This document shows, in pieces, positions 1-46,939 of a DNA stretch of 64,000 bases (within the stretch, counting starts at the first letter, position 1; each line of letters starts with the position of its first letter). The DNA is from Marsupella aquatica (lineage: Eukaryota > Plantae > Marchantiophyta), in contig OZ316894.1 of the NCBI GenBank assembly GCA_973895155.1, positions 13,945,580 through 14,009,579 of the forward strand, read 5' to 3'. The notes under the pieces are model-generated. The model saw only the letters and a list, made by a program, of their open reading frames with translations, had not been told where the DNA came from and searched no databases. The position numbers were made by a program, and so were the translations under genes.

Positions 1-406
1 CACACATGCTGCTAAAACCCTAAACCCAAAACAAGGGGGCCGACGGTGCCTTCGACGGCGCCCCAACAGTACACGTGAACCCTGAAAGTGAGAGGCACCC
101 CAAAATGGCCGAAACTAGGTGCCCTTCCAAGTGCACACCTGAGCTCACCCCTGGATAGCTCTTCTTTTCCTGCTTCCGAATCACTAAGTCGCTCCCTCAA
201 CGGACTTCAGACGCCTGAGTTATGGCCGTTTCCGTACCGCAAAAACATAAGTTCTCCAGGCCATAACTTGCTCATCCTGGCTCCGTTTGAGGAGCGCCGC
301 CTCTTGTTGGAATCAGCTCCGCGAGCTCATCCCAACAAGCCCATGAGTGACCCCCCACTAAAATGTTGGAAATCTGGAGGCCGTACACCCACGTCCGTAC
401 GCCTAT

Positions 407-2263
407 CTAATCCTCCTCTTCTTCTTCGCTCTCGGTGCCCGGACTTGTGCCCCGTGAGTGGTCCTCCTCCTCATCACTCACGGGAGTGAGTGCCACCGTA
501 CTTTTCTTCTTCTTCGACGGAGTACTCTTAGTGCTGCTGCTCCCGCGCTTCCTCAAAGCAGCCAAGGCCTGCCACGCCTTGATGTACCCCTCACCAATTG
601 TGTCCTTCCAGAGGGTAGCCTCTTCTCCGGACCGCAACTCCAACGGTAGAACTTGCCCCGTGGCCATGGGAGTCCCGGGGGTGACAGACCTGGGTGGCAT
701 CCCCGTACTGACCTGAGCCTCCCGTAACGATTTCCGTACCTCCCGGAGCTTCTTCTCCAAGCTCTTACTCTTCTCCTGACTCTTCTTGGCTCCATCCAAC
801 AAGGGTCCATACTTCCCACTAACCTCCTTCACCACCATCTCGATAGCTTGGGAGATCACATCCGGGGAAAGTGTGGAGCCAGGTGTGCCGGGACTCTTCC
901 GTTTCCCTAGACTCAGGGCCTCACTTCTCTTCGCTCGTGTCTCAAAGGCTGCCACCTGACTCCGTAGTGCTCCCACCTGGTTCCTCCACTCCATCACTTC
1001 TCCAGAATTTTGCTTCTCTTTGGCCAATGCTTGCCTCAACGCTCCTACTTCTTCTGCTTCCTTGGCCTTGGTGGACAAAGCTCCCTTCAAGTTGGTGATC
1101 TCTACGTGAGCTGCATTGATGTGCCTGACCTTCTCATGAATGGTCTGCTCCTTGGTCTTGATCACCTCCTTCAGTGACAGGATGCTCTGCTCTAACGTCT
1201 CTACTTTGACTGTGGCGTGCTTGAGAGACTCCCTCAATGCGTGGACTAGCTTGAGTCCCTCGTGGACTCCCTCTCTGAAATCCCGTAGCTCTGCCAAGTA
1301 AACATCCGGAATGTTGTATTCCAGAGGCTGTTTCGGATCTCCCACGAGTGATTCAAGCCACTCCAATGTGCAATCATCCTCCTGGTTCTCTTCTTCTCTA
1401 TTATCCTCCCCACCAGCAGACAATGATTCCTCCGTGAGCTTCCCTAAAACGGTAGTGGCAATACTCCGGATCTCCGTGGTGAGAGATGATCCCGTGTCTT
1501 CATGCCCCGGAGAACCAATCAACCCTTCTGCCCTGGCCAATACAAATGACCCCATCAAATGTACAGCCCCACCTGGTTTCACACTCCCGGGCTCAGCGGC
1601 CAATAGCTTCTTCAATCCGTAGCACCACCATCCGTACACATGGGCTGGGTAGTTCTTGATGTCCATAGCTACCACGAAATGCTCCTCATTCAGCACTCCG
1701 GATTGCACGTTGCCAAGAACCCGTTGATGCACCTTGGCCAGGAAGCCCTTATACTCAACATCCTTGACAGCAGAAAGAGGGATGGCGGTGGTGGAGGTAG
1801 GATTGGTCACCCAAGTGGCCACCATTTTCAACGTGAGTTCTCCCCTGATATTCCGAGGTGTGAATGAGAATTTCTGATTCTCAAGAAACAATAGCTTAGC
1901 CAACTCCACATGGGGCACTACACGTTTGAGACATTCAAAGTAGATTCCCTCCGTTCGGAACTCCATCCCGGCCTCAATGTCCCAGCTCTTCCCTGAAGGG
2001 ATGGTAATCTCCACCTTCATGAATTCTGTAAGCCCGGTGGCTTGGAAAATGTTCCGACAATCCTCCATCACCTTGGTGGAGGTCTTGGGATAAATTCGAC
2101 GAAAAATCTTCCTACCCACCGGTGAGGAACCCGCTGCCAATCCCGTGCTCATCATAACTTCTCTCTCTTCCCTTTCCCGTGTAATCCGAGTCTCCACGTA
2201 GTCACGGTAAGCAGCCTTGTATCTCCGAATGCGTGACGCACTAAACTCTGGTTGATCTAGCAT
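407..2263 (-). CDS. 618-aa LTR-resident accessory protein (3' LTR copy): N-terminal globular domain, acidic linker, long coiled coil, basic then acidic tail
   Basis: Uninterrupted ATG-to-stop ORF lying wholly inside the LTR. Heptad-like E/K/L/A-rich stretch from about aa 325-520, KKKK/KRK basic patches, EEEEED C-terminus. Confidence 0.85.
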   Translation of the reverse strand: MLDQPEFSASRIRRYKAAYRDYVETRITREREEREVMMSTGLAAGSSPVGRKIFRRIYPKTSTKVMEDCRNIFQATGLTEFMKVEITIPSGKSWDIEAGMEFRTEGIYFECLKRVVPHVELAKLLFLENQKFSFTPRNIRGELTLKMVATWVTNPTSTTAIPLSAVKDVEYKGFLAKVHQRVLGNVQSGVLNEEHFVVAMDIKNYPAHVYGWWCYGLKKLLAAEPGSVKPGGAVHLMGSFVLARAEGLIGSPGHEDTGSSLTTEIRSIATTVLGKLTEESLSAGGEDNREEENQEDDCTLEWLESLVGDPKQPLEYNIPDVYLAELRDFREGVHEGLKLVHALRESLKHATVKVETLEQSILSLKEVIKTKEQTIHEKVRHINAAHVEITNLKGALSTKAKEAEEVGALRQALAKEKQNSGEVMEWRNQVGALRSQVAAFETRAKRSEALSLGKRKSPGTPGSTLSPDVISQAIEMVVKEVSGKYGPLLDGAKKSQEKSKSLEKKLREVRKSLREAQVSTGMPPRSVTPGTPMATGQVLPLELRSGEEATLWKDTIGEGYIKAWQALAALRKRGSSSTKSTPSKKKKSTVALTPVSDEEEDHSRGTSPGTESEEEEED

Positions 2264-2700
2264 CCATGCATCCCGAAATCAATTTCTCAATCACCAATCC
2301 CGTCACCCGTGGCAATGTCAATTCCCTGGCCCGAAACAGCCCCCGTAGCCCGATCACTTAAATTCTCTCAATTTCCCGTCACTACTCCGTGCGGCCGCCA
2401 CTAATGCCTGGAAGAATGACGCCAGCAAGCCCCACTAATCCACCATGAAAGAGAGAGCTTCAAAAATAATTAGAATCTGGAGAGAGCTTCCGGCAAGAGA
2501 GAGAAGAACCCCGTTTTTGCTTTCGGCAATGAGAGGGTCGTGCAAAAGGAAGAGGGAAAGAAAAAGGAAGGAAAAAAAAATAGAACCGAAAAAACTCCTG
2601 GCGCCTTCGCCATGCGCCCCGGCCCATTTCTCGGGCCTTACCCTTGCGTCCTCCTGCGCGCGGCCCTATGCAGGGCGCGCGGCCATTCCTCCCGGCTCGC

Positions 2701-2888
2701 GGGAGGCCCTTCAACTCCCCCCTGCTCGCGTGATCCTCCCAGCTCGCGGGAGGCCCTTTAACTCCCCCCCGCTCGCGTGATCCTCCCAGCTCGCGGGAGG
2801 CCCTTTAACTCCCCCCCGCTCGCGTGATCCTCCCAGCTCGCGGGAGGCCCTTTAACTCCCCCCCGCTCGCGTGATCCTCCCAGCTCGC
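2701..2888. repeat. 4 x 47-bp GC-rich tandem repeat in 3' LTR
   Basis: Unit GGGAGGCCCTTTAACTCCCCCCCGCTCGCGTGATCCTCCCAGCTCGC, followed by two copies of a ~64-bp-period repeat (about 2896-3006). Confidence 0.95.
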
Positions 2889-3333
2889 GGGACCTCATTA
2901 ATTGCCCGGGCACGCAGCCCTATGGGCTCGCGAGGCAGCCCCTTCAGCTCGCGGAGCCCCATTAATCGCCCGGGCACGCAGCCCTATGGGCTCGCGAGGC
3001 AGCCCCTCTTTCTCTCGGACGGCCACTAATGGGACTCGCCCTCCTGAGGAGGGATTTATTTAAAAAAAAACCCCCCCCTCTCCTGACTTTGCAATGGGGG
3101 TCTCAACAATAGCTCTTGAAGCAAAACGGTAAGTCCTATGGGGCTGGTCCTGGCTAGTTTCAAGGTCCCAAAATATTTGCCCACTTAGGTCGCCGCAAAT
3201 CTTAGAACTATTATGAGAGAAAGAATATAAAGTCACCTGGGGCATCATCAACCTATAATGACGGAATTAACTAAAAATTAAAAAATGGCTTATTTACATT
3301 GACTATTAACAAGGTATCGGCCTTTGCAACCAG

Positions 3334-6300
3334 TTATGTGTGACTTCCCGTGACGGGGTACCCGTCACATAGCTCCTCTCTTAATTGCGAAGCGCCCCCG
3401 CGAGCACCATACTCTTCCTCCGTGTAGTACTTCTTTAGGCGCTCTTGATTGATCCGTGTGTTGAGTAGTTGCCCCTCCAATGTCTTGAGTTGAACCGAGC
3501 CGTTGGAGTAGACGGCATCCACTACGTAGGGTCCCATCCACCGTGTATGCAACTTCCCGGGGAAATGCATGAAGCGGCTATCGTAGAGGAGCACCAAATC
3601 TCCCTCCTCAATGGACACACGACGGAGACGGGAATCGTAATGTGACTTGCGTTTGCCTTGCTCCTGCTCCGTATGTGTCAAAGCCTCTTCTCGTGTCTCC
3701 GTGAGTTGCTCCAACTGTTGGATCCGTGAAGCGACACTTTCTTCTGCCCCTTCCCTTTCCCGTGTTAGGATTCGAATGGTTGGAACCTCAAATTCCACCG
3801 GCACAAGAGAGTGTTGTCCAAACACAAGGAAATAGGGGCTGTGGCCCGTGGTAGTCTTGTGAGCCAGGTTGTAAGCGTAAGTGGCAGCCAACAACTTCAA
3901 ATCCCAATCGGTCTTGTGAGCGGATACCGTTTTGTTGAGGATCTTGCCCATGATCCCGTTGGCTCTCTCAGTGAGCCCGTTGGCTCGAGGGTGGTACGGA
4001 GTGGTCTTCCTATGTGAGATCAAGTAGTTCTCCGTCAAACGTTCAATCGTATGATTGAGGAAGTGAGTACCCCTGTCACTTACCAACTCCAATGGTGGAC
4101 CAAATCGTGTAAAAATCTGCTCATACAAAAAACGTGCCGTGGTGTTGGCATCATCCTTGGCAGTAGCTCGGGCCTCCACCCACTTGGTGGCATAGTCCGT
4201 TGCAAGAATGATGTAGCGCTTCCTCCCTCTTCGTGTGATGGGAGTGAAAGGGCCAATGAAGTCCACCCCCCACTTCTCAAAGGGTGCAAGAGGAAGTATG
4301 GGCACCAATGGGTGTCGTGAGGAGGGCCCTGGTTTGCCTTGACGCTGGCACGGATCACATCGCTGGATGTACCGGTGTACATCCCGAAAGAGAGTTGGCC
4401 ACCAATATCCAGCATCTAGTATTTTCCTTGCGGTGGTCTCCCGTGCAAAGTGGCCACCAGCTTCCTCCTCATGTAATGCTGCCATGACTGTACGTATCTC
4501 CGCTTCCTCCAAACAACGACGAAGTCGGCCATCCATGCCGTACTTGTGAAGTACTCCCTTCACCAGCAAGTAGGGACCTGTCTTACGCAAAAACACTGCT
4601 GCTCTCTCCGGGCCCAAACGTGAGGGAACTCTAGCCGTGCGGAGAAATTCCAAAATTTCTCCATACCAAGTAGTGGCCTCTGTATTCACGCTGAACACTT
4701 CCTCATCCGGGAACCGATCATCAATCTCCTGGGAGTCAGATGCTCCCTCAATACGGGAGAAGAAGTCTGCATTGCTATGACTCTTCCCCGATCTTACTCT
4801 CACCTCATAGTTGAACTCTTGTAGCAACAAAACCCAACGTGCAATTCTCCCGGACAGATCTGGCTTGTTGACCATGTATTTCAAGCTGTTGTGATCCGTG
4901 TGGAACACAACCTTGTACCCCAACAAATAATGACGATACTTCTTACAAGCGTAGATGATACCAAGTGCCTCCCTATCGGTGGGTGAGTAGTTTTTCTCTG
5001 CCGGGGCCAACTGCCTACTGGCAAAGTAGATGGGATGGTCTCTTCCATCATCATCTAACTGACTCAAAACGGCACCGATGCAAAATCCTGATACGTCTAC
5101 GTAAACATGGAATTCCTTATTCCAATTGGGCGTAATGAGCACGGGGGCCTCTAGCAATCGTTTCTTCAATTCATCAAAAGCAGCCTGACGGGAAGGAGTA
5201 GGTTCAAACTCACTTCCTTTTTTCAACATGGAAGTGAGTGGCATGGCTACCTTGGCAAAGTCTTTGATGAAGCGTCGGTAGTAGCCAACACACCCCAAGA
5301 ACCCTCTCACTTCCTTCACATTCTTGGGAAATGAGACTGCTACCCACACGGCGACCTTCTCACGATCAACTTCAATCCCTCGTGCAGACACTTTGTGGCC
5401 CAATAGGATTCCCTCCTCAATTCCAAAGAAACATTTCTCCGGATGCAGCTTCAGGCAAGTCTCCCGGCACCGCTGAAAAGTCAACCGTAAGTGTTCCGGA
5501 TGCTTGACTCGTTTGCCGTAGACAGCAAAGTCATCAATAAAGATCTCCAAGAACCTGCGTAAAAAGTCATGAAATATATTCATCATGAGCCGTTGGAACA
5601 TGCCAGGGGCATTGCACAACCCAAAAGGCATTCTCCGGAATGCAAAAATCCCCCACTCTGTTGTGAAAGCCGTCTTGAGTTGGTCCTCCTCCCGTATCCA
5701 GATTTGGTTGTACCCAGAGTAGCCATCCAAGAAGCTGTATATCTCCCAACCTGCTACCATGTCCAACACGATATCCGTGAACGGTAGCGGGTAGTGATCC
5801 TTCTTGGTCGCATCATTCAACTTTCGAAAATCTTGGCACACCCGTATTTTCACCTTCCCGTCTGGCCCCTTTTTCTTGGGCACGATTACGATGGGTGACA
5901 CCCACTCACTATGCATGACCGGATAAATGAATCCTGCATCCAACAAACGGTCAATCTCCTCCTTCACCATGAGTGAGTATTTGGGGTTGAGGCGGTATTG
6001 GCGTTGCCTCACAGGTCGTGCTCCTGACATCAGGTCAATGCTGTGCTCACCAAACTCAGGTGGCACTCCTTTCAAATCTTGGTGGCTCCACGCAAATACG
6101 TCTTGGTACTCTTTCAACAATTCCTGAATCGTGCGTTGCTCCGTAGCATCCAACTTACTACCAATGTTGAGTGTCTTGCCCTCACCCACTTCCACCTTTG
6201 TGTACTGCTCCGGCCTGATCACGTCCAACTTGTTGCGTGTCTCCTCATCAAAGGTTTCTTCCAACCGTGCGAGCCTCATCCCTCCATACACCGGTGCATC

Positions 6301-9300
6301 ACTCTCCTCCTGGTCTGGTCGGGATGGAGGTGGATCCTTTGTCACATGGGCCATTATTTCTTCAACGTCAGATTCTTTGTAATGTGACAATAGCTCCTCT
6401 CTAAAGTCATCATCCAGGATGTCATTCAAAAACTGCTCTCTTTGCTCATCATCAAACATGATCGTGTGGGCTTGCATTTCCACCTCCTCGGGGTGATCCT
6501 CTGCCTCCCTATCATGAATCTCGAGAGGTTCAGCCTCCACAATTTTGCTTCGCTCGTCTTCCATCTCTTCTAGAACAGCGTGCACTTGGCTAACTGATTC
6601 CTCTACTGCATGCTCTTGAGTAGCAACTCCGGGGCCAAAAACATCTTCCTCCGTGAGGTGAGAAATCAGTTTCACCATGTATACTTCATCCTCGTCTTCA
6701 TCTGAGGTGACCTCTGAATCATATTCCTCCTCCATAGTCGTAGTCTCCCCGTGAGGTGACTCCGCTGACCATGGAATAGTGATAGTGGGGATACCAAACC
6801 GAAACTGCCGTTTGCCCCAATCACTTGTGACCTTGGCCACATACAACCATGGCCTGCCAATTAAAATGGGAAAACCGTACGGCCGAACGGGTCGCATCAC
6901 CAAATAGTTGAGGGGGAAAGATTTTCCCCCAATCATTGTTGGAATCTTGGTGAGACACCCCAACGGCACCACCCGTGCACCATCAGCCAACCTCATGGCA
7001 CGTGCCGGTGGTTCTAACTCTGTATACCCCAACCGGTTTGCCGTCTCCTCAGTCATGATGTTGACTCCCGAGCCCCCGTCCACCGGTACAAACCGTATTG
7101 CACATCCATTGATGTCCACCGTGAGTTCTGGGGCACCCAAATCCTCCGTGACCCAGTTGACTTGTATGGGGTCAGCCCCAACTTTGGGTAACCTTCGTCT
7201 ACGTCTCCTCCTCATGAGAATCTCCTTGACTTGGCGACGGTATAGGGAGCTATCCCGTAATAGTTGACCAATTGTGGCACTGACTGGGCAATCCAGAATG
7301 TCTTGAGCAATGTTGTACGCGGTTGCAGGAGGTATGGGTGGGATGACCTCTTCTCCCGGTTTCCAACGAACAACCCTCTCCTCCGCTTTCTTTCTGGCCT
7401 TTGCCTCCTCCATGTCTTTGTCAATGGCCGCTTGCATGGCTTGTGCTTCTAGCTCCTCCAACTGCTTACGTACCTCTTCTCCCACCTTCGGATAGAACAA
7501 CTTGGGGTTGTCCCGATCAAAGTCACTATCCTCCATGGGTGGCACCTCCGGTTCGTGTGAGGTACCCGATGTGGAAGCTTGATGCACCTCCTTGTACTTC
7601 TGCTTGAGCTCGGACTTGCCCTTCTTTTTGCCGGATCGAGTGGAGACTCGGTAACAAGAGTAATGCCTTCTCTCCTCGTCGCTGTCTTCCTCCGGTAGAT
7701 TCTCAGCATGAGTCCACTCATGACTTGGGGGTGAGGGGTTAGCAACTTCAACTTCCGTAGATGTTGCAACAACAACCACCGGTATCTCAACAACTGGAGA
7801 TACTACAACGACTAGCGGTACCACCTCCTCCGTTATGGTGGTCATCCTTTGCTTGGGAATGTTCACTACGGTTTCTTCTCTTCTAGTGATTAGAGGGGTG
7901 TCGACTGCTTCCGTGGTGAGAAAGTTGACGCTAGCTTCTTTCAGAGGAGGTGGCGGCCCCTTCTTCTCTTGTGCCCCAATCGGTTGAGCCTTGAACGCCT
8001 CCAAGGTTGGGCAGTGTGGTGCAAGATGACCCTCCCCCTTGCATAGTTGACACAGCCGGGCAAAATCTCCATTGCCTTGACGGGTGGGCTCTGGGCACAC
8101 ATTAGCGTAGTGGCCCGCCACTCTACAATTGTAACAAATAGGGATCTTCCTCACTCCAGGGTACGGTGGTCGATTCCCTGGGTTAGCGTTGGGATAGTTG
8201 GAGTATGCGGGTGCTCCGGCGTTTGTTGAAACTCCATAAATGCTCCGTGGTCCCGGGTTGAGAGGTTGTACACTATACACGTTGGCCTCTGGTGGCTCCT
8301 CCATGAAGTACTCTATTGGCCCTTCCGCTGCATATGAAGGATTTGAGTAGCTTGCCCCCTCAACATCCTCCTCCCGTACTTGGAAAACCTTGGCTGGTTC
8401 TCCCGCTGGGCACTCCTTCGGGGCATGACCAAACTTCATGCACTTGGTGCACCACACATTGGCTCTCTCCACCGGAACTTTTCTCCTCTCAGGTTTGAGT
8501 CCGGCAAAATGTACTTTCAACGCTTTCATTTGCTCCGTCAGCTCATCATATCTGGCCTCTTGCTCCTTCAGGCGTCTTGCCGTAGACAATGGTGTAACGG
8601 CCACCGTGGGTAGTATCACTTCACGGTGAGAGGACTTCTTGACTTTCTTTGACAACTTCTTCTTCTTCCTCCTTCGTCTTTCAGCTTCTGACTCCGTAGT
8701 GTCTGACTCTGTAGTACTCTCAGAATCCTCAGATTCATCACTACTATCTGAATCAGATCCACTCGACTCCTCACTGGAGGAACTGTCAACCGGCTTCAGC
8801 TTCTTTCTTCGGCAACGCTTGCTTGTGGCATCAGCTGCGGTGTATGACTCCGCTGCTGCAATAGCTTCAGCCAATGTGGTTGGCTTGGCTTGACGTACAA
8901 AGAACCCCATCTTGCTTGGTAGGGCAGCCACAAACCAGGCTTGACGCATAGCATCATCGGTACGGGCTTGGATCCGACGTACCAGCTTTTGGAACCTTTG
9001 CAAAAACCTCCGTAATGACTCCTTCTTCTTCATCCTGAGTTGGCCCACCTTTAATAGTGAGGTGGCCTCCACTCCTATGGATCTGAACTCCTTCAAGAAG
9101 GCTTGCTTGAACAGAGCCCAATCAGCTTTCACGTTGGCCAACAACGAAATGAACCATGGACCTGCCTCCCCTCTCATCATTCCAGGAATGATAGTGAGCT
9201 TATGTGCAGACTCCCCATTAGCTTCGGCAATCCCTTCAAACTCCTCAATCCATTCGTCTGGATCATCCTTTGGTCTCCCCTTGAAGGGTACGTACTGAAC

Positions 9301-9732
9301 ACGGGTACGTTGTGCAGCTGCCATCGGTGCAGCCGGTGCCTGTATCAACACAGGTGGTAATGGCGCTTGTTGGGCCACCGGTAACAGCACCGATGATAGG
9401 TGTGAGATGATTTGTGGCAATGCAGTGAGCTCTGGGATCAGATTTTGTAACTCAGACTGCACCAACACAAAGGGCTCTCCTTCTTCTCGCTCGTGATCTA
9501 TGTCTGGCTCTTCGTCTGGGCATATGGCCTCATTACGTTGAGCCTCTTCCTGTTGCACACCAACTTGTTCTTCCAGCACCAGTGGCAACCTCCTCTCTTC
9601 TGCAAGCCGTAAGCGTTCTTCGGCAGCAACTCGTCGTCTGGTCCCAATCCAAGAGGGCCCCCCTTCTAGCTCTGATCTTGGGGTACGTGTGTGTTGGGGA
9701 CTTCCTCTACCTCCCCTTCTCCCTCTCGGCAT
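3334..9732 (-). CDS. Gag-Pol polyprotein, 2132 aa
   Basis: Gag with three CCHC knuckles (CTKC..H..C, CYNC..H..C, CQLC..H..C), protease VDGGSG, RT (RVCQDFRKLN, MPFGL, FIDD), RNase H (VDVS, DREAL, TDH), integrase (H..H..CDPC, WGVDF, SDRG, NGLTER), and WMGPY motif. Confidence 0.97.
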   Translation of the reverse strand: MPRGRRGGRGSPQHTRTPRSELEGGPSWIGTRRRVAAEERLRLAEERRLPLVLEEQVGVQQEEAQRNEAICPDEEPDIDHEREEGEPFVLVQSELQNLIPELTALPQIISHLSSVLLPVAQQAPLPPVLIQAPAAPMAAAQRTRVQYVPFKGRPKDDPDEWIEEFEGIAEANGESAHKLTIIPGMMRGEAGPWFISLLANVKADWALFKQAFLKEFRSIGVEATSLLKVGQLRMKKKESLRRFLQRFQKLVRRIQARTDDAMRQAWFVAALPSKMGFFVRQAKPTTLAEAIAAAESYTAADATSKRCRRKKLKPVDSSSSEESSGSDSDSSDESEDSESTTESDTTESEAERRRRKKKKLSKKVKKSSHREVILPTVAVTPLSTARRLKEQEARYDELTEQMKALKVHFAGLKPERRKVPVERANVWCTKCMKFGHAPKECPAGEPAKVFQVREEDVEGASYSNPSYAAEGPIEYFMEEPPEANVYSVQPLNPGPRSIYGVSTNAGAPAYSNYPNANPGNRPPYPGVRKIPICYNCRVAGHYANVCPEPTRQGNGDFARLCQLCKGEGHLAPHCPTLEAFKAQPIGAQEKKGPPPPLKEASVNFLTTEAVDTPLITRREETVVNIPKQRMTTITEEVVPLVVVVSPVVEIPVVVVATSTEVEVANPSPPSHEWTHAENLPEEDSDEERRHYSCYRVSTRSGKKKGKSELKQKYKEVHQASTSGTSHEPEVPPMEDSDFDRDNPKLFYPKVGEEVRKQLEELEAQAMQAAIDKDMEEAKARKKAEERVVRWKPGEEVIPPIPPATAYNIAQDILDCPVSATIGQLLRDSSLYRRQVKEILMRRRRRRRLPKVGADPIQVNWVTEDLGAPELTVDINGCAIRFVPVDGGSGVNIMTEETANRLGYTELEPPARAMRLADGARVVPLGCLTKIPTMIGGKSFPLNYLVMRPVRPYGFPILIGRPWLYVAKVTSDWGKRQFRFGIPTITIPWSAESPHGETTTMEEEYDSEVTSDEDEDEVYMVKLISHLTEEDVFGPGVATQEHAVEESVSQVHAVLEEMEDERSKIVEAEPLEIHDREAEDHPEEVEMQAHTIMFDDEQREQFLNDILDDDFREELLSHYKESDVEEIMAHVTKDPPPSRPDQEESDAPVYGGMRLARLEETFDEETRNKLDVIRPEQYTKVEVGEGKTLNIGSKLDATEQRTIQELLKEYQDVFAWSHQDLKGVPPEFGEHSIDLMSGARPVRQRQYRLNPKYSLMVKEEIDRLLDAGFIYPVMHSEWVSPIVIVPKKKGPDGKVKIRVCQDFRKLNDATKKDHYPLPFTDIVLDMVAGWEIYSFLDGYSGYNQIWIREEDQLKTAFTTEWGIFAFRRMPFGLCNAPGMFQRLMMNIFHDFLRRFLEIFIDDFAVYGKRVKHPEHLRLTFQRCRETCLKLHPEKCFFGIEEGILLGHKVSARGIEVDREKVAVWVAVSFPKNVKEVRGFLGCVGYYRRFIKDFAKVAMPLTSMLKKGSEFEPTPSRQAAFDELKKRLLEAPVLITPNWNKEFHVYVDVSGFCIGAVLSQLDDDGRDHPIYFASRQLAPAEKNYSPTDREALGIIYACKKYRHYLLGYKVVFHTDHNSLKYMVNKPDLSGRIARWVLLLQEFNYEVRVRSGKSHSNADFFSRIEGASDSQEIDDRFPDEEVFSVNTEATTWYGEILEFLRTARVPSRLGPERAAVFLRKTGPYLLVKGVLHKYGMDGRLRRCLEEAEIRTVMAALHEEEAGGHFARETTARKILDAGYWWPTLFRDVHRYIQRCDPCQRQGKPGPSSRHPLVPILPLAPFEKWGVDFIGPFTPITRRGRKRYIILATDYATKWVEARATAKDDANTTARFLYEQIFTRFGPPLELVSDRGTHFLNHTIERLTENYLISHRKTTPYHPRANGLTERANGIMGKILNKTVSAHKTDWDLKLLAATYAYNLAHKTTTGHSPYFLVFGQHSLVPVEFEVPTIRILTREREGAEESVASRIQQLEQLTETREEALTHTEQEQGKRKSHYDSRLRRVSIEEGDLVLLYDSRFMHFPGKLHTRWMGPYVVDAVYSNGSVQLKTLEGQLLNTRINQERLKKYYTEEEYGARGGASQLREELCDGYPVTGSHT
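3370..3382 (-). other. Polypurine tract
   Basis: AAGAGAGGAGCTA directly before the TG of the 3' LTR. Confidence 0.8.
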
Positions 9733-9949
9733 CCCATTGAGACCTGCATTCCAAACTTACACCAATGTCTCAGAAAGCAATATTTGTAAACATCAACCGT
9801 CGCACGATGCGTTGTGGTTGACGTACAATAACAAAGTAACCAACAAACTTCTCACGTATCAACCGTCGCAAGTTGCGTTGTGGTTGATAGGTTTGAACTC
9901 CCAATAGACGTAGCTCCCCTCCTTCGTGTCGTCAAACAAGAAGAAGGAT

Positions 9950-9967
9950 TCCCCGGCAGCGGCGCCA
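9950..9967 (-). other. Primer-binding site, tRNA-Asp type
   Basis: TGGCGCCGCTGCCGGGGA, one mismatch to the TGGCGCCGTTGCCGGGGA PBS recalled for Athila elements. Confidence 0.85.
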
Positions 9968-10568
9968 AAAACAAAAGACCACACTTATGTCACTTGCCTC
10001 TCCAACGGTTAATACGTGCAAACCGCACTTTTCTTCGCTTAAACCGTTGGTATCGTATTACGGGGTCGTGGAGGGACGCTATTTGGATTCTTTTCACACC
10101 AGGATGAGTATTTTGGTTTCCGCTCCCGGAAATGTAGGTTTTGATCAAGTCTACCGACTACCCTCACCCCACAGCTTTTGATCAAGTCCTGCCGACTACC
10201 CCACTACACCTTCACTCGGAGTCACCCAAAGAGTGCTGTCACCACCCCTACTCACAAGGCCGACTCAAACCAAGCAAGTTTCTTCAAATCATAGAACGGG
10301 AGAACACAATTCGGAAAGCGAAAAAGGGAGAAGGAACACACAACAAAAGCCCATCAAGTCCAATGTACAGATCCATATCTCTTGGGAAAAACGATACACA
10401 TTGCATGAGTAACCCGGCCTCCTGCCGTCTACTCAACTCCTGCCTCTCCGGACAATGAGTATGGCTCCCCCTCACTACTCTGAACACGCTTTCAAACTCC
10501 TCAGGCTCCACTCTATCCCTCCTTGCTAACTTCACACTGAGTCCCCCTAACTACTTCGGGGCTATCCC

Positions 10569-10578
10569 CCTAAATACT
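10569..10578 (-). promoter_or_regulatory. Candidate TATA-like box of the LTR genomic promoter (AGTATTTAGG)
   Basis: Same 10-mer at a comparable position in the solo LTR (59351-59360), about 0.6 kb from the LTR 3' end in both. Confidence 0.45.
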
Positions 10579-11098
10579 GAAAAATCACACCAAAGCACCC
10601 CTCACAGGGTCACAACGGTGGCGGCTACCCTAGCGGCGCCGCTAAAACCTTGCACTAAGAGAAATCCTTAAACTGAAGAGGAGCATGCGGCACACACATG
10701 CTGCTAAAACCCTAAACCCAAAACAAGGGGGCCGACGGTGCCTTCGACGGCGCCCCAACAGTACACGTGAACCCTGAAAGTGAGAGGCACCCCAAAATGG
10801 CCGAAACTAGGTGCCCTTCCAAGTGCACACCTGAGCTCACCCCTGGATAGCTCTTCTTTTCCTGCTTCCGAATCACTAAGTCGCTCCCTCAACGGACTTC
10901 AGACGCCTGAGTTATGGCCGTTTCCGTACCGCAAAAACATAAGTTCTCCAGGCCATAACTTGCTCATCCTGGCTCCGTTTGAGGAGCGCCGCCTCTTGTT
11001 GGAATCAGCTCCGCGAGCTCATCCCAACAAGCCCATGAGTGACCCCCCACTAAAATGTTGGAAATCTGGAGGCCGTACACCCACGTCCGTACGCCTAT

Positions 11099-12955
11099 CT
11101 AATCCTCCTCTTCTTCTTCGCTCTCGGTGCCCGGACTTGTGCCCCGTGAGTGGTCCTCCTCCTCATCACTCACGGGAGTGAGTGCCACCGTACTTTTCTT
11201 CTTCTTCGACGGAGTACTCTTAGTGCTGCTGCTCCCGCGCTTCCTCAAAGCAGCCAAGGCCTGCCACGCCTTGATGTACCCCTCACCAATTGTGTCCTTC
11301 CAGAGGGTAGCCTCTTCTCCGGACCGCAACTCCAACGGTAGAACTTGCCCCGTGGCCATGGGAGTCCCGGGGGTGACAGACCTGGGTGGCATCCCCGTAC
11401 TGACCTGAGCCTCCCGTAACGATTTCCGTACCTCCCGGAGCTTCTTCTCCAAGCTCTTACTCTTCTCCTGACTCTTCTTGGCTCCATCCAACAAGGGTCC
11501 ATACTTCCCACTAACCTCCTTCACCACCATCTCGATAGCTTGGGAGATCACATCCGGGGAAAGTGTGGAGCCAGGTGTGCCGGGACTCTTCCGTTTCCCT
11601 AGACTCAGGGCCTCACTTCTCTTCGCTCGTGTCTCAAAGGCTGCCACCTGACTCCGTAGTGCTCCCACCTGGTTCCTCCACTCCATCACTTCTCCAGAAT
11701 TTTGCTTCTCTTTGGCCAATGCTTGCCTCAACGCTCCTACTTCTTCTGCTTCCTTGGCCTTGGTGGACAAAGCTCCCTTCAAGTTGGTGATCTCTACGTG
11801 AGCTGCATTGATGTGCCTGACCTTCTCATGAATGGTCTGCTCCTTGGTCTTGATCACCTCCTTCAGTGACAGGATGCTCTGCTCTAACGTCTCTACTTTG
11901 ACTGTGGCGTGCTTGAGAGACTCCCTCAATGCGTGGACTAGCTTGAGTCCCTCGTGGACTCCCTCTCTGAAATCCCGTAGCTCTGCCAAGTAAACATCCG
12001 GAATGTTGTATTCCAGAGGCTGTTTCGGATCTCCCACGAGTGATTCAAGCCACTCCAATGTGCAATCATCCTCCTGGTTCTCTTCTTCTCTATTATCCTC
12101 CCCACCAGCAGACAATGATTCCTCCGTGAGCTTCCCTAAAACGGTAGTGGCAATACTCCGGATCTCCGTGGTGAGAGATGATCCCGTGTCTTCATGCCCC
12201 GGAGAACCAATCAACCCTTCTGCCCTGGCCAATACAAATGACCCCATCAAATGTACAGCCCCACCTGGTTTCACACTCCCGGGCTCAGCGGCCAATAGCT
12301 TCTTCAATCCGTAGCACCACCATCCGTACACATGGGCTGGGTAGTTCTTGATGTCCATAGCTACCACGAAATGCTCCTCATTCAGCACTCCGGATTGCAC
12401 GTTGCCAAGAACCCGTTGATGCACCTTGGCCAGGAAGCCCTTATACTCAACATCCTTGACAGCAGAAAGAGGGATGGCGGTGGTGGAGGTAGGATTGGTC
12501 ACCCAAGTGGCCACCATTTTCAACGTGAGTTCTCCCCTGATATTCCGAGGTGTGAATGAGAATTTCTGATTCTCAAGAAACAATAGCTTAGCCAACTCCA
12601 CATGGGGCACTACACGTTTGAGACATTCAAAGTAGATTCCCTCCGTTCGGAACTCCATCCCGGCCTCAATGTCCCAGCTCTTCCCTGAAGGGATGGTAAT
12701 CTCCACCTTCATGAATTCTGTAAGCCCGGTGGCTTGGAAAATGTTCCGACAATCCTCCATCACCTTGGTGGAGGTCTTGGGATAAATTCGACGAAAAATC
12801 TTCCTACCCACCGGTGAGGAACCCGCTGCCAATCCCGTGCTCATCATAACTTCTCTCTCTTCCCTTTCCCGTGTAATCCGAGTCTCCACGTAGTCACGGT
12901 AAGCAGCCTTGTATCTCCGAATGCGTGACGCACTAAACTCTGGTTGATCTAGCAT
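11099..12955 (-). CDS. 618-aa LTR-resident accessory protein (5' LTR copy)
   Basis: Translation identical to 407-2263. Confidence 0.85.
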   Translation of the reverse strand: MLDQPEFSASRIRRYKAAYRDYVETRITREREEREVMMSTGLAAGSSPVGRKIFRRIYPKTSTKVMEDCRNIFQATGLTEFMKVEITIPSGKSWDIEAGMEFRTEGIYFECLKRVVPHVELAKLLFLENQKFSFTPRNIRGELTLKMVATWVTNPTSTTAIPLSAVKDVEYKGFLAKVHQRVLGNVQSGVLNEEHFVVAMDIKNYPAHVYGWWCYGLKKLLAAEPGSVKPGGAVHLMGSFVLARAEGLIGSPGHEDTGSSLTTEIRSIATTVLGKLTEESLSAGGEDNREEENQEDDCTLEWLESLVGDPKQPLEYNIPDVYLAELRDFREGVHEGLKLVHALRESLKHATVKVETLEQSILSLKEVIKTKEQTIHEKVRHINAAHVEITNLKGALSTKAKEAEEVGALRQALAKEKQNSGEVMEWRNQVGALRSQVAAFETRAKRSEALSLGKRKSPGTPGSTLSPDVISQAIEMVVKEVSGKYGPLLDGAKKSQEKSKSLEKKLREVRKSLREAQVSTGMPPRSVTPGTPMATGQVLPLELRSGEEATLWKDTIGEGYIKAWQALAALRKRGSSSTKSTPSKKKKSTVALTPVSDEEEDHSRGTSPGTESEEEEED

Positions 12956-13392
12956 CCATGCATCCCGAAATCAATTTCTCAATCACCAATCCCGTCACCC
13001 GTGGCAATGTCAATTCCCTGGCCCGAAACAGCCCCCGTAGCCCGATCACTTAAATTCTCTCAATTTCCCGTCACTACTCCGTGCGGCCGCCACTAATGCC
13101 TGGAAGAATGACGCCAGCAAGCCCCACTAATCCACCATGAAAGAGAGAGCTTCAAAAATAATTAGAATCTGGAGAGAGCTTCCGGCAAGAGAGAGAAGAA
13201 CCCCGTTTTTGCTTTCGGCAATGAGAGGGTCGTGCAAAAGGAAGAGGGAAAGAAAAAGGAAGGAAAAAAAAATAGAACCGAAAAAACTCCTGGCGCCTTC
13301 GCCATGCGCCCCGGCCCATTTCTCGGGCCTTACCCTTGCGTCCTCCTGCGCGCGGCCCTATGCAGGGCGCGCGGCCATTCCTCCCGGCTCGC

Positions 13393-13533
13393 GGGAGGCC
13401 CTTCAACTCCCCCCCGCTCGCGTGATCCTCCCAGCTCGCGGGAGGCCCTTTAACTCCCCCCCGCTCGCGTGATCCTCCCAGCTCGCGGGAGGCCCTTTAA
13501 CTCCCCCCCGCTCGCGTGATCCTCCCAGCTCGC
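13393..13533. repeat. 3 x 47-bp tandem repeat in 5' LTR
   Basis: Same unit as 2701-2888, one copy fewer. Confidence 0.95.
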
Positions 13534-14014
13534 GGGACCTCATTAATTGCCCGGGCACGCAGCCCTATGGGCTCGCGAGGCAGCCCCTTCAGCTCGCGGA
13601 GCCCCATTAATCGCCCGGGCACGCAGCCCTATGGGCTCGCGAGGCAGCCCCTCTTTCTCTCGGACGGCCACTAATGGGACTCGCCCTCCTGAGGAGGGAT
13701 TTATTTAAAAAAAAACCCCCCCCTCTCCTGACTTTGCAATGGGGGTCTCAACAATAGCTCTTGAAGCAAAACGGTAAGTCCTATGGGGCTGGTCCTGGCT
13801 AGTTTCAAGGTCCCAAAATATTTGCCCACTTAGGTCGCCGCAAATCTTAGAACTATTATGAGAGAAAGAATATAAAGTCACCTGGGGCATCATCAACCTA
13901 TAATGACGGAATTAACTAAAAATTAAAAAATGGCTTATTTACATTGACTATTAACAAGGTATCGGCCTTTGCAACCAGTTATGTGTGACTTCCCGTGACG
14001 GGGTACCCGTCACA

Positions 14015-15490
14015 GCTCCATAAAATATGGAAGGACCATGGGATGTGGAAGGTCCATAGGATGTAGATGCCCCATCACCAAATGTAGGTCTCACCTGGGA
14101 ACTAGCCATGGCAGCTAGCTGTTGCTCCAATTGAGCAATCTTAGCATTCTTTGGATCTATGGTTACAACAGGGGCAGCGTTACCTCCCTGTCTCCCTGCA
14201 TGTGGCATGCCCCGACCACGTCCACCACCTCTACCTCCTCCTCCTCTTCCCTGATCATGTGTACGGGATCCTCCTCTCCGTAACTCAGGATGGAGTGAGA
14301 AACACCTATCCTTCGTGTGTCCAGGAGCTCCATAGTGATCACACTATCGCTGATCAGGCGCTGATGCTCCCCCTGATCCTCTATGATCTGGGCAATATCT
14401 CTGTGCATGATCCCCACCATAGGTCCAACATCGTGACTGTTGTCCAGCAAAAGAGGGCACAGGTCTCTAGCTGGTAGACTCTCGTGCAATAGGCTTCTCC
14501 CTCTGGCTCTTCCGTGCAGTAGGTTGTGGTGGGGATGTAGATGCAACCTTTGGTGCTTCCTTGGCAAATCCGGAAGTCACCACCTTCTCATTCACCATAC
14601 TGTGCTCAATGCGCTCCGAAAGTGTAAAAACAACTGCTAATGTGGGATCTACATCCCTAAGCAGAGTGACATCTCTCACTTTGCATCGCAATTCTCTGTC
14701 CATAATTGCATACCAAAATTGGACTACCTGAGCCTCTCTCACTCCCTTGGTGACAGTGATCAATCTGCGCATACGAGTGTATGCCTCACGTAGACTCTCT
14801 CCAGTCTTGCACTAGAACTCCTTGAGGCCCTTCAACTTATCAGTTCTCACACCCTGATAGTTTTGCTTCAGTACCTCAAAGAATTCCACCATAGGGTTAA
14901 ATGCTGGCACAACTCCAGTTCCTGTCACAATCACACCGGCAGGAGTAGCGGTGGATGCTGCTAGAGTACTGTTGGTGGATGGTGTGCCACTCTGGCTAGT
15001 GCTGCTAGAAGAAGCAATAGCTGTGGCAATGGGTTGGGCAGCCGCACTAGTGCCATAGGTGATGGACACGTAATTAGGCGACCAATGCTGCCTCCATGCC
15101 TCAATCTCAACCAAATGAGCCTTTCAAAACTCATGGTAGTCATCCATGGGTGGCCCCTCCAAATGCTGAAATAATCTCTTCCATGCCATGAAAGGGGTAA
15201 ACAACGTGGCATTACGCAATGTCTGCATATTGCACCACGTATCAAAATCCTGGATGAAGTCATCCAAATCAATTGTGCCAACTGCACCAGATTATCGTTG
15301 TGGGCCCTTCGTAGCCCCGTACATCTTATCCATATCCCACAACAGAGGTGCAACCACCTGATGACGAGGAGAACTGGTCACTGAGTTCTCGTCGGAATCA
15401 CTGTCTGAAGTTGTGCTGCTGACTGCTACCAATGTCGCTGGCCAAAACTACACCCCACTCCGAGTAAAACCGGTCTGTCATCCATTGGGT
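14015..15490 (-). pseudogene. Degenerate gypsy gag interrupted by the Athila-like insertion
   Basis: Broken frames reading EFFEVLKQNYQG..KEF*CKTGESLREAYTRMRRLI..QFWYAIMDRELRCKV, plus a zinc-knuckle remnant (CWQCGELGH-like). Confidence 0.7.
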
Positions 15491-15567: not shown

Positions 15568-17378
15568 TGTCAGTAACACAAGCACTCACCATGGTGTGTT
15601 GGGCATCATTCCAACGTCACCGGGAGAGAAATACGTAGCACAACTAGAATGTCCGGTTGCAAACCCAGATCACTCCTATAGAATCAAGCGCCCACGCCAA
15701 ACTAACATGGCGCATAAACAGGAAGCATATGTGGAGAGGATCCAATCAACAAGAAGAGATCCACAATAACTCTCCACATCAATAGTGATCATACATCAAT
15801 CAAACAATGTTCATAATGTTCAATGTGGGGCCTTCATAATAGGCCTCTCAATGTTCAATGTCGTAGCTAAGGATCCATGCACAATTGGTTCAATCCATGG
15901 ATCTAGATGGATTCAGAAGCATCAAAAACCTTAAGGGAGCTCACAAACTAGAATGTGTATAAAATGCCTAAGTGCTCATTCCATTAACATCAAAGTGGAA
16001 ATGAGGGGTGTGTACACAAGAGCACTTAAGAACCACATAGTTAAGCGCGTGAGGAAGGAATAGCTTTGGGATGGGTGACCTCTCACTTGTAGTTATGCAC
16101 CAAATTGGCCGCTCCAAAATCAGCAGCTTGCAACTACTGCTCACGTACCAGCAAGCCCGCCCGCTCCTGCTCCGCCCTCACGCCCCTCATCCCGAGTAAC
16201 CACGAGTTGCCTCGAAGCCTCCAAACGCCAAGAGTGAGCCCTTCACGCCCGCAAAGCTTCGCTACGCCGGAACCACGTTCAGATTTGCAACATTCAGGGT
16301 TCCGCCCCTTGTGTCCCTTCATAGAAGTTTGCGGTAGCGGCGGAGTGGAGTACAGTTTGTCTCCCACATCGATGTACTATCTTCGTAGATCTGCAACGAG
16401 CGTTGGTTTGACAACATTCAAACTTTGCCTTCACAAAACGCATCAACATTCCTGGCGGGTGGCTACTTCCGGATCGGCGCACGACGGTCACTTCGGATTA
16501 GCGCCAACAACGTACAGTCCGCACCGCCAAATCGGCAACATGTGACAGTCATTTCCTTCACAAAAATGTGGTTGTCGCTTCTACTCGACAGCCGTCTCGG
16601 TTACACTTAGCGCCACGTTCCTTCGTGAAACCATTGGAGCCCGATTCGGCAACATGTAATAGTCATTTCCTTCCGAGAAACGCAGATTCAGAGTGTAGAG
16701 TGCATCGGTCTTTGGCAACATTCATCGGATTGATCCCTTCACACATATGCGGGCGATAGCAGCACACTGTCCAATCGCAAATCAGCAGATGGAACATTCA
16801 CCCCCCACAGAGCACCGCACTCATCTAGTTGCAGCCAATCGGTATACAAACAATTAGAGCCACGGATAGGCTACAGATCTGCTCAAGAATGAAACTCACA
16901 CGATCTCAACTTGGATCCACATATCGGCGATCCAATCAAGCAATACGATGCACGATCCGAGATACCACAAACCGTCATCGAACACAATCAAACTGAAAAT
17001 CGAAGCTCTGTCCAACAACAACAGAGTCCGATGCCTGATCTTTCAATGTAATCTCAATATAATCGGCACAACAATCCCGGTCCACAATACCCCATCAATC
17101 CCGCACCGATCCGATCACACATGTATGTCAAGCCAACGCACCTTGCACTACTCAAGGAATCCACATTACACAAGTGGAGCTCACAGCCACCATAGCCACA
17201 CTCAAGCTCCTCTCTCTCCAAGGCTCAACATTGAAAGATGACCTTTCAATGCCTCACAAGTAAGAAGTACCCTCTCACACAAACCTGACGAAACCTTATC
17301 GGCTCATATAGCACACATACCAAACATACGGATCTAGATAGTATGATACACTCTAACACTACCTAGAATGGTGTGACA
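15568..17378 (-). repeat. Putative ~1.8 kb 5' LTR of the degenerate minus-strand gypsy element
   Basis: TGTCA...TGACA inverted termini upstream of the gag relic. The first ~320 bp match 21002-21320. Confidence 0.45.
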
Positions 17379-17590
17379 GAGTAGCTAAACAGCTGCGGAT
17401 GCGCTCTGTTGGTGTTACTGATCGTCCATTGGTGAGCTTGCGGTCCACTGAGACAGTGACGACCACAGCTGGGGGCGAGCAGACAATCCATGGACCTACG
17501 GCAGGATTGGCCAAGGCTGGACAGATTGTTGAGTAGGAAGAGACTGCTCAATCTATTGCTAAATAGCAATCATCGGCTATCCCTTCTACC

Positions 17591-20500: not shown

Positions 20501-20688
20501 ATGGTATAGTAGATCCAAGTTTGGCACATGTTTGTGCTGGCTTGAAATGTATGTTGTGTGGATCTGCTCAGGGAGCAACTACTATGCTGATTTGTGATAA
20601 GTGTTCTAGAGGATGACACATGTCATGTTTGACACCACCATTACAGGTGATTCCTAGTGGATCATGGTTGTGTCCCCAGTGTCGGTGA
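17591..20688 (+). pseudogene. Degenerate Ty3/gypsy pol: RT-RNase H-integrase with C-terminal PHD finger
   Basis: RMCGDYR, LPFGLKNAP, YIDD, DWS..EGECLA..DH, HEELGH..CVVC, WSLDF, TDQG, then CMLC..CDKC..H..C..W.CPQC. Several in-frame stops. Confidence 0.9.
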
Positions 20689-20863
20689 AGCCAACTAGTT
20701 ATCATTTGTGTTCTCTTGGCCGATATGGATTGCAAGAAGGTGATCGATGGGGCTCACTTGTACCCGGCCTCCTGATCTTCACACTTAAAAAGGTGTATAT
20801 CAGCCCTGTAGAACTCATGGCTAGCTAGAGTTAGGGGACCTTACTCCCAGCTAGGGGGGCGAT

Positions 20864-21459
20864 TGTGGGTTTTGGACATGTGTGGACATGAGTTCCACTT
20901 GTATTCCATTCTCTTGTGTTTGTGATGTGGCAGTGTGACTATGTCTGGATGTATGTGACAAGCAATGTATGTTATGTAGCGATGTGTATGTGCACAACAG
21001 CTGTCACACCATTCTAGGTAGTGTTAGAGTGTATCGTACTATCTAGATCCGTATGTTTGGTATGTGTACTATATGAGCCAATAAGGTTCCATTAGGTTTG
21101 TGTGAGAGGGTAGTTCTCTCTTGTGAGGCATTGAAAGGTTATCTTTCAATGTTGAGCCTTGGAGAGAGAGGAGCTTGAGTGTGGCTATGGTGGCTGTGAG
21201 CTTCGCTTGTGTAACGTGGATTCCTTGAGTAGGACAAGGTGCATTGGCTTGACATACGTGTGTGATCGGATCGGTGCGGGATTGATGGGGTATTGTTGAT
21301 CGGGATCGTTGTGCCGATTGTTGAGAAGATTATTGTGGGTTTTGGACATGAGTTCCACTTGTATTCCATTATCTTGTGTTTGTGATGTGACAGTGTGACT
21401 ATGTCTGGATGTATGTGACAAGCGATGTATGTTATGTAGCGATGTGTATGCGCACTACA
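20864..21459 (+). repeat. 3' LTR region with A-B-A' structure
   Basis: Follows PPT AGGGGGGCGAT. 20864-20999 is repeated at 21334-21459, and both copies run TG..CA. Confidence 0.65.
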
Positions 21460-39565: not shown

Positions 39566-40022
39566 TTTGGTTTTTGTGGTTTGGGAGGCTAGGCAGTGTG
39601 TTTGTTGTGTTGGACTGGTGTGAGATTGGATTGTTGTTGACTATTGTGTGGTTGTGTTTCATCGTGCTTAGCTGGAGGTTTGGTGTTTGGGTGCACAATT
39701 TCATTAGTTATTGATGTTAGGAATTGATTGGAGGTCACTGGTTCTAGTTAGTTTGGCCTTACTAGGGTTAGTTACCTTGGACTACATTCGGATAAGATCC
39801 GCTTAGTTTAGGCTCACACATCTTGGCCCCCTTGGCAGGTTTTTTTTTTAAATTTAATTTAAACTTTATTCCGCATGAACCCCACGGATGGGGGGAACCA
39901 ACAGGCCAAACGGCACATGGGCCAAAAAGACAACAAGGGATACAATCAAGCCCAAAAAGGATCATCATCCAAAAACTAGGGAGTTTATGACTAAGGAGAA
40001 ATGTCAACAAAAATGACAATAA

Positions 40023-41862: not shown

Positions 41863-41869
41863 AATAACT

Positions 41870-44605: not shown

Positions 44606-44609
44606 GTCA

Positions 44610-46390: not shown

Positions 46391-46599
46391 GGGGGTTAAC
46401 TAAGTGTATATTTTGGGGTACCAGGTGCGATCCTAGCATAATATAAATAGACCTATTTTATTAAGAAAATATTCCAAGAATATTCTCTATTTTCAATATT
46501 AATAACCTATTTTACTTTATAAAAGGTATATATTAGATAATATTCTATAAACATAAGTTTATAATACCTTCTTTTGCCTCTTACACTTTTTAAAAATTT

Positions 46600-46902: not shown

Positions 46903-46939
46903 AAAACAAGGTATTGTATAATGCAAGCAAACAAGAATT

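Follow-up and report, generated by a model that had tools for sequence, protein, structure and literature searches.

At the beginning of the window (the whole stretch of 64,000 nucleotides of Marsupella aquatica that we analysed) we find what is almost certainly a young, multi-copy Ty3/gypsy retrotransposon which carries a gene, ORF618, within both of its LTRs. The explanation that we favour overall, with reasonable though limited confidence, is that of a conserved LTR gene which is read first and likely codes for a nuclear helper.

The element lies on the minus strand, in the order 5' LTR, PBS, gag-pol, PPT and 3' LTR; its full length is predicted to be about 14.7 kb. The 5' LTR (TGTGAC...GTGACA) occupies positions 9988–14014, about 4027 bp with its 3' end inferred at 9988, and the 3' LTR is found at 1–3369, the window edge removing about 705 bp. 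The initial annotation had the repeat starting with TG just after the PPT and again at the outer junction, as we also see: on the minus strand it begins with TGTGAC at both 3369 and 14014. The start at 3369 is preceded by a run of 10 purines and CTA; the PPT (3373–3382) and the pre-LTR motif TCGCGGGG... are found together at 3370–3403. The PBS is at 9950–9967, about 20 nt past the inferred LTR end. A single open frame of 2132 aa (3334–9732, minus strand) codes for gag-pol, with Gag, zinc knuckle, PR, RT, RH and IN identified by Pfam; its stop sits 36 nt within the 3' LTR, so that pol reads through the PPT. Direct repeats with a TG start, a PBS after the 5' repeat and a PPT before the 3' repeat are features of Ty3/gypsy, as is the order of the Pfam domains Gag-PR-RT-RH-IN. 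Neither aRH nor a chromodomain is present among the 12 Pfam families listed at E≤0.1. About 12 nt 5' of the gag ATG there is an acceptor-like TGCAG/G (9740–9750, minus strand), a candidate splice site. Beyond the outer junction (14014/14015) the translation reveals a decayed gag-like frame from an older element (14015–15400, minus strand; identified as gag by eye). The junction interrupts this frame and marks the insertion site.

The repeat had been interpreted as an LTR and not as a tandem duplication, and both the position of the PBS and the read depth bear this out. A scan of 9733–14014 with seven PBS words gave a sole long match, at 9967, downstream of ORF618; three other words had one 6-letter match each. 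In two public runs (X1 and X2, from two studies, one of them possibly the source sample) the contigs of the LTR and ORF618 have 2.2–2.3 times the internal depth, as expected of an LTR; a single internal contig underlies each ratio, and contig depth is not true copy number. The exact contigs of X1 have a depth of 723.9 in the internal region and 1572–1664 on all seven listed LTR pieces. The values in X2 are 2753.8 and 6012–6330 on six of the seven listed pieces; the remaining piece, from a diverged copy, has a depth of 862. The step occurs between 9975, where depth is internal-like, and 10026, where it is raised, which coincides with the predicted LTR end. Contig cover of the element is confined to 9400–13200, with the outer junction outside it. 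A ratio above 2 fits the presence of young solo LTRs, though none was seen. Runs X7 and X8 contain low-depth traces only; in X8, a relative carries a TGTCA whose distance to the PBS is almost that seen in our element. The 13 runs listed include none of RNA, which speaks neither for nor against expression.

It is very unlikely that the repeat is of another nature, whether an assembly duplication or a tandem of elements with a common short LTR and an internal ORF like that of Ogre. Such a reading would suit the identity of the two copies, the location of the left end and any TSD outside the window (by about 705 bp), the contrast between a perfect 31-bp TGTGAC...GTCACA unit and an imperfect GTGACA end about 20 nt from the PBS (3–6 nt in Athila), and the equality of the outer flank GGAGC with the PPT tail. 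However, no PBS is found upstream of ORF618, the depth ratio is 2.2–2.3 in two studies and its step falls where the LTR is predicted to end, an unrelated gag-like frame breaks off at the outer junction, the copies differ by one repeat unit and two relatives, described below, have no short-LTR match between their ends. It is the PBS position, together with the depth step and the depth ratio, that indicates an LTR rather than a short-LTR tandem. Both this tandem and a 31-bp mini-LTR were rejected from PBS position and depth.

When the LTR copies are compared (1–3369 with 10693–14014) there are no mismatches, only a single 47-bp gap in a tandem array. In the 5' LTR the GC-rich arrays (47 bp x 3.4 and 64 bp x 2; 13379–13652, minus strand) are likely to be the U3 enhancer; the counterpart in the 3' LTR has 4.4 units of the 47-mer (2687–3007, minus strand). 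The region 12956–13378 (minus strand) would contain the core promoter and the leader of ORF618, with a start site placed from the sequence. It has a pyrimidine-rich patch, a donor-like GTAAG at 13333 and short upstream ATGs; no clear TATA box is found upstream of ORF618. The repeat opens with the perfect 31-bp unit mentioned above, and the imperfect GTGACA is the putative true LTR end. The LTR also has plus-strand ORFs of 103 aa and 111 aa; the latter gave no Pfam match.

ORF618 has 618 codons in sense, on the same strand as gag-pol, and is found at 11099–12955 in the 5' LTR and at 407–2263 in the 3' LTR, with identical DNA. It is intact and wholly within the LTR in both copies, as the initial annotation had reported: it begins 1.1 kb inside, between the LTR start and the sole PBS. 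The longest open frame in 300 simulated LTRs (order-2) had 294 codons. Intactness alone proves little, since the LTRs are identical. Among family copies nine of the 12 listed substitutions in ORF618 are synonymous, versus 23% expected (p=2e-4); these changes are not independent, because ten of them fall within 61 bp. One of the 12 listed indels is in ORF618, and it is in frame. These lists contain 40 of the 409 substitutions and 12 of the 35 indels. The sequence comparison supports purifying selection on ORF618.

We have also found 13 homologues with 27–62% identity, which together span most of the protein. Eight of them were looked up, and three of these are proteins of the liverwort Calypogeia fissa. 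ORF618 could be a passenger, a host gene or a piece of another element that was captured recently, in a family too young for it to have decayed. Annotation treats the Calypogeia homologues as genes, and there is no alignable link between ORF618 and the ORF of the relatives, as a passenger might have; but the synonymous excess among diverged copies, the range of identity of homologues without a named cellular family, and the presence in the relatives of ORFs at the same position and with a similar domain order make it improbable. In our view ORF618 probably encodes a functional protein.

This protein has an N-terminal globular region (about 50–250), an acidic linker, a coiled coil (about 310–445), basic patches at 454, 504, 571 and 584, 11 S/T-P sites and an acidic tail. 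No transmembrane segment is evident, in agreement with the earlier reading: the highest 19-residue Kyte-Doolittle mean is 1.09, and the protein thus lacks the segment that is characteristic of env-like proteins. A Pfam scan gave no match, a word-indexed search retained none of 7994 candidates, a metagenome scan confirmed none of 36 stretches and a PDB sequence search had one match, with E 0.64. The AlphaFold model of the N-terminus has a pLDDT of 47.6, and with this model Foldseek found nothing at E≤0.001.

L001 and L002 are metagenome relatives with a pol which is 61% identical; they are repeat contigs in which we see both LTR ends rather than two full LTRs. Their PBS and pre-LTR motif are the same as in our element, and their LTR-PBS spacer has 5–7 nt. 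The termini of L001 form an inverted pair, TGTGGGAGC / GCTCCCACA, and an inverted pair is also present in L002. A conserved ORF begins 514 nt (L001) and 660 nt (L002) inside the 3' LTR; the two ORFs have a dN of 0.38 and a saturated dS over 69 codons. Upstream of both there is, by eye, a TATA-like word and a pyrimidine patch; the acceptor-like site before gag is not clearly conserved in L002. The family of these two ORFs (the L001 family) has 14 long members with a coiled coil and a basic tail, and shares basic clusters and S/T-P sites with ORF618. No match between ORF618 and this family was found by tblastn, and hhalign comparisons of ORF618, the L001 family and three Transposase_32 pieces, with thin profiles, gave probabilities of at most 0.3%. 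The L001 family has no Pfam match and its AlphaFold model has a pLDDT of 40.7. Since L001 and L002 also have an ORF embedded in the LTR, this layout is probably a trait of the clade and not a one-off.

We propose that transcription starts about 0.2–0.35 kb upstream of ORF618, past the GC-rich arrays. Such a start would place the ORF in R/U5 and give a minus strong-stop DNA of about 3.2 kb. ORF618 would be the cap-proximal cistron of every RNA started in an LTR, either 5', 3' or solo; gag-pol, 3.2 kb downstream, would need a second start or a spliced RNA, perhaps through the acceptor-like site before the gag ATG. The gene may owe its place inside the LTR to the position of the PPT, which follows pol directly and precedes the gene. 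Working in trans from the nucleus, the protein would form a coiled-coil oligomer which may support transcription of the family or counter its silencing. The basic patches suggest a nuclear location, and the protein is likely a helper of the element; for a nuclear role in favour of transposition we see the balance as even. With the same layout the protein could instead have a role in the particle or the cytoplasm: it might chaperone RNA or Gag, serve as an adaptor for nuclear import of the integration complex or be a cell-to-cell movement factor, as has been proposed for the env-like ORFs of Athila. The long coiled coil suits a scaffold, only the basic patches place ORF618 in the nucleus, and the available text of PMC7264820 includes proposals that env-like ORFs are chaperones or act at plasmodesmata. 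We consider this rather unlikely: ORF618 has no transmembrane segment, its basic clusters and S/T-P sites recur in the L001 family and related extra ORFs are nuclear, reported or predicted, in the accessible parts of the sources.

Plant LTRs are usually treated as regulatory DNA, and a conserved 1.9-kb gene within one of them alters what a solo LTR is. With an ORF embedded in the LTR, the strong-stop DNA would be unusually long and gag would have to be reached past a full ORF. Annotation can mistake such copies for host genes, and this may have happened with the "unnamed proteins" of Calypogeia. The element is young, its gag-pol is open and the ORF is probably directly under the LTR promoter: the function of Athila-type extra ORFs becomes testable in a liverwort model. 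More tentatively, and rather less likely than not, a whole clade of gypsy elements in bryophytes, related to Athila, may have its accessory gene in the LTR, directly under the LTR promoter. Every LTR would then be a complete gene cassette, and a solo LTR, with both promoter and gene, would go on providing the family with a nuclear factor for anti-silencing or trans-activation; the main route by which the host deletes retrotransposons would leave the helper gene in place.

The most likely counterpart of ORF618 would be the 3' sense ORF (ORF1/Transposase_32 type) of Athila, a non-chromovirus OTA element, far diverged; whether they are kin we judge could go either way. In the ESM Atlas the N-terminus of ORF618 scores 0.83 to ATHILA and Transposase_32 clusters, a score that roughly one in three shuffled proteins attains, and the L001 ORF scores 0.90 to Transposase_32; a 191-aa ATHILA cluster of 59 members is listed for both. 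Neither ATHILA PF03078 nor Transposase_32 PF20167 gave a Pfam profile match. In sunflower, an Athila 3' ORF contains Transposase_32 together with a predicted NLS, according to the available part of PMC11728184. The PBS of our element agrees in 12 of 13 letters with the tRNA-Asp/Asn type motif of ATHILA printed in 10.64898/2026.03.20.713144. Also Athila-like are the single gag-pol frame, the lack of aRH and chromodomain matches, the sense ORF with basic patches after pol, and the length, about 14.7 kb within the 7.3–22.8 kb of Athila. However, the extra ORF of Athila is between pol and PPT, whereas here it is in the LTR, twice; the LTR-PBS spacer is about 20 nt instead of 3–6 nt, AT-rich, and the LTR ends in TGACA instead of TATCA (both for Athila of Brassicaceae). 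In an RT-RH FastTree (104 sequences, no curated references) the clade of the element, which includes a Marchantia protein, is separate (0.971) and stands beside an angiosperm group (0.434).

Reviews place plant extra ORFs in the internal region, as far as the available text of PMC7264820 and PMC3485330 goes, and a literature search, with most subscription papers and the ATHILAfinder bioRxiv supplements outside its scope, found no gene embedded in a plant LTR. The LTRs of Retrosat2 and RIRE3 (Tekay) exceed 3 kb, contain tandem repeats and are described as regulatory in the accessible part of PMC3485330; the R region of Retrosat2 is about 2 kb long, and an additional ORF precedes gag. ORF0 of Retrosat2/RIRE3 and ORF1 of Ogre resemble ORF618 as the first cistron seen from the RNA, but the available text treats them as internal and single, while ORF618 is in the LTR and duplicated. 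Their lineages are also different: Retrosat2/RIRE3 is a chromovirus and Ogre a Tat element, with the aRH and the internal ORF1 downstream of the PBS that our element lacks. Phygy (Physcomitrella) and Selgy (Selaginella), compared by description, are also gypsy non-chromoviruses of non-seed plants, and their polyprotein fills nearly all the internal region (PMC6317226). They differ by a tRNA-Trp or tRNA-Ala PBS, a 4-bp TSD, a length of 4.4–10 kb and no extra ORFs; our element does not have the tRNA-Trp PBS, the 7.7–10 kb length or the absence of extra ORF of Phygy.

Among retroviruses, MMTV sag, HIV nef and foamy bel2 are accessory genes situated in the LTR or overlapping with it, and integration doubles them; they lie in U3, 5' of the start site, and are expressed from spliced RNA which runs into the 3' LTR. 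No sequence link joins them to ORF618. The parallel with sag and nef drawn in the initial annotation holds for an accessory coding sequence which the LTR carries and integration leaves in two copies, but not for its position: ORF618 belongs to a plant element without env and, being downstream of the likely promoter, is probably a first cistron in R/U5, unlike the retroviral genes in U3.

The window has one long direct repeat, in positions 1–3369 and 10693–14014. Its two copies align pairwise with no mismatch and a single 47-bp gap, which is one unit of a tandem array (4.4 and 3.4 units respectively). A single gag-pol frame of 2132 aa is found on the minus strand (9732→3334), with the domain order of Ty3/gypsy elements in Pfam: Gag, zinc knuckle, protease, RT, RNase H, integrase. 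The initial annotation placed a complete 618-aa gene in each LTR, and both are there: ORF618 is an intact sense frame of 618 codons in two DNA-identical copies on the minus strand (12955→11099 and 2263→407), whereas simulating the LTR 300 times at order 2 gave open frames of at most 294 codons. From 5′ to 3′ the LTR has an AT-rich start, GC-rich tandem arrays, a pyrimidine patch, a short leader, ORF618 and a 1.1 kb tail. Its first 31 bp (13984–14014; 3339–3369) make up a perfect TGTGAC...GTCACA unit, which contains an inner hairpin GTGACGGG / CCCGTCAC; at the true 3′ end, as inferred, the sequence is instead an imperfect GTGACA. Near that end a motif of about 25 nt occurs twice (GGGTAGTCGG...ACTTGATCAAAA, 10130–10210), beside an indel hotspot among family copies (10164–10173).

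The same annotation took the repeat for an LTR and not a tandem duplication, and three observations agree with it. A scan for PBS-type words gave only one long match within 9733–14014, at 9967, downstream of ORF618; it agrees at 12 of 13 letters with the ATHILA tRNA-Asp/Asn PBS motif, as printed in the available part of 10.64898/2026.03.20.713144. For depth we aligned contigs from four public runs, one of which may be the source sample itself, to positions 9400–13200. In run X1 the exact internal piece has a depth of 723.9 and all seven LTR pieces listed 1572–1664; in run X2 the internal value is 2753.8 and six of the seven LTR pieces listed have 6012–6330, the seventh being a diverged copy (862). 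The LTR/internal ratio is thus 2.17–2.30 in two separate studies, as contig depth rather than copy number and for the listed pieces, beyond which there are 2230 more; the excess above 2 would be compatible with some young solo LTRs. For an internal, Ogre-like ORF the expected relative depth is about 1. The depth step lies between 9975 and 10026, where GTGACA (9988) falls, and the outer junction interrupts a decayed gag-like frame unrelated to the element. PBS, depth and junction all indicate that ORF618 lies within the LTR, which is thus about 4027 bp long. The whole element measures about 14.7 kb, with its left end and TSD site beyond the window edge.

Two features are unusual. Between the inferred LTR end and the PBS there are about 20 nt (9968–9987), against 5–7 nt in the metagenomic gypsy loci L001 and L002; run X8 includes a relative with a similarly long spacer, and 3–6 nt are given for Brassicaceae ATHILA in the part available of 10.64898/2026.03.20.713144. 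The flank of the outer junction (14015–14019, GGAGC on the minus strand) equals the element's own PPT tail (3372–3376), either by chance or by target preference. Between PBS and gag a short hairpin-like unit is found twice (CAACCACAACGCA...TGCGACGGTTGAT, 9790–9895), possibly a packaging or dimerisation signal.

Family copies suggest purifying selection on ORF618. Twelve of the 40 substitutions listed (409 in total) fall in it; nine of these 12 are synonymous, with 23% expected (p=2e-4), a value which overstates the case since 10 of the 12 are clustered within 61 bp. One of the 12 indels listed (35 in total) is in ORF618, in frame. A full HMMER scan gave 13 homologues with 27–62% identity, jointly spanning most of the protein; three of the eight with checked records come from Calypogeia fissa, an indication of a liverwort host. 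A word-indexed search and a metagenome scan gave none.

The window pol as query gave nine loci. L001 and L002 have a pol 61% identical, contigs which cover the internal region from end to end, and the same PBS and pre-3′-LTR motif as the window element. Their LTR begins with TGTGGGAG, about 60–90 nt past the pol stop, and the 5′ LTR of L001 ends in inverted GCTCCCACA. DNA similarity between them ends about 10 nt into the LTR. In both a sense ORF begins inside the LTR, 514 or 660 nt in (gene region 6148–7517 in L001 and 7374–8242 in L002, starting in the 3′ LTR), with dN 0.38 and saturated dS over 69 codons, versus dN 0.08 in pol. The 5′ and 3′ contig ends do not overlap, so the LTRs must be longer than about 1.5 and 2.2 kb. 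The L001-type family has 14 members (P0134–P0147, 525–705 aa) with an N-terminal domain, a Pro/Glu linker, a coiled coil and, in most of them, a basic tail. An RT-RH tree was built from 104 sequences with an arachnid root; of 122 candidates, 103 had passed a filter of 85% coverage. In it both loci join the window element and the sequences P0006, P0007 and P0016 in one clade (0.992). This clade is nested in a larger one with a Marchantia protein (0.971), which adjoins angiosperm elements (0.434) in this tree without Phygy, Selgy or curated Athila references. The LTR-embedded ORF is probably a trait of the clade that holds the window element, L001 and L002.

ORF618 lacks a transmembrane segment (its hydropathy peaks at 1.09) and carries four basic patches and 11 S/T-P sites; weak coiled-coil matches lie at about 310–490. 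AlphaFold models have low pLDDT (47.6 for the N-terminus; 40.7 for the L001 family), and the N-terminal model had no Foldseek match. A PDB sequence search gave nothing significant. In the ESM Atlas residues 40–270 reach 0.83 to the clusters of ATHILA (PF03078) and Transposase_32 (PF20167), as do a third of shuffled proteins; the L001 ORF reaches 0.90 to Transposase_32, with seven of its ten best named matches from one family or clan. Pfam has no match for the ORF618 family and no meaningful one for the L001 family, and thin profiles gave no alignment of ORF618 to either the L001 family or Transposase_32 pieces. Set against these negatives, Transposase_32 kinship is only a lead; for ORF618, kinship to ATHILA/Transposase_32 is about an even bet.

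By eye, L001 and L002 have a TATA-like word and a pyrimidine patch about 190–240 nt above the ORF. Transcription may start just above ORF618, which would put this frame in R/U5 and make it the leading cistron of all RNAs started from an LTR; expression of gag would then depend on splicing or on a further start. The sequence 12 nt above the gag ATG is an acceptor-like TGCAG/G; the corresponding site is CAG/GGATG in L001, with no clear match in L002. Retrosat2 offers a precedent for a long R, about 2 kb (PMC3485330, available part). By analogy to the Grande extra-ORF protein, described as nuclear in the text available of PMC7264820, and to a sunflower Athila ORF which carries a predicted NLS (PMC11728184, in part), the ORF618 product is likely a nuclear trans-acting helper.

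Elsewhere in the window a second, decayed gypsy element is found on the plus strand (17061–21319), with RT-RH-IN in 17699–20616 followed by a Cys-rich tail, and with repeats in inverted orientation at 17061–17379 and 21001–21319. By eye, long frames resemble a CBS-domain plastid protein (27873–28682) and an Obg-type GTPase (49017–50246); copia and gypsy debris lies at about 40000–55000. The two frames are in keeping with DNA from a plant nucleus. Two minus-strand frames of Pro-rich and coiled-coil character (57895–58998) may be what is left of an extra ORF from another element; ORF618 and six of its homologues gave no tblastn match there.

Reviews locate plant extra ORFs in the internal region (PMC7264820, PMC3485330, parts available). 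We found no plant LTR-embedded gene in the openly accessible literature, as distinct from subscription papers such as the 2011 extra-ORF survey; the accessible parts of PMC7466625, PMC12885004 and PMC9033089 do not mention one. The window element lacks features listed for Phygy and for Tat in the available part of PMC6317226. It would operate much as an Athila element that carries an accessory ORF, but two Athila features are missing: placement of the ORF in the internal region and the form of the junction. Precedents for a gene in the LTR are found in retroviruses: MMTV sag, nef and bel2.
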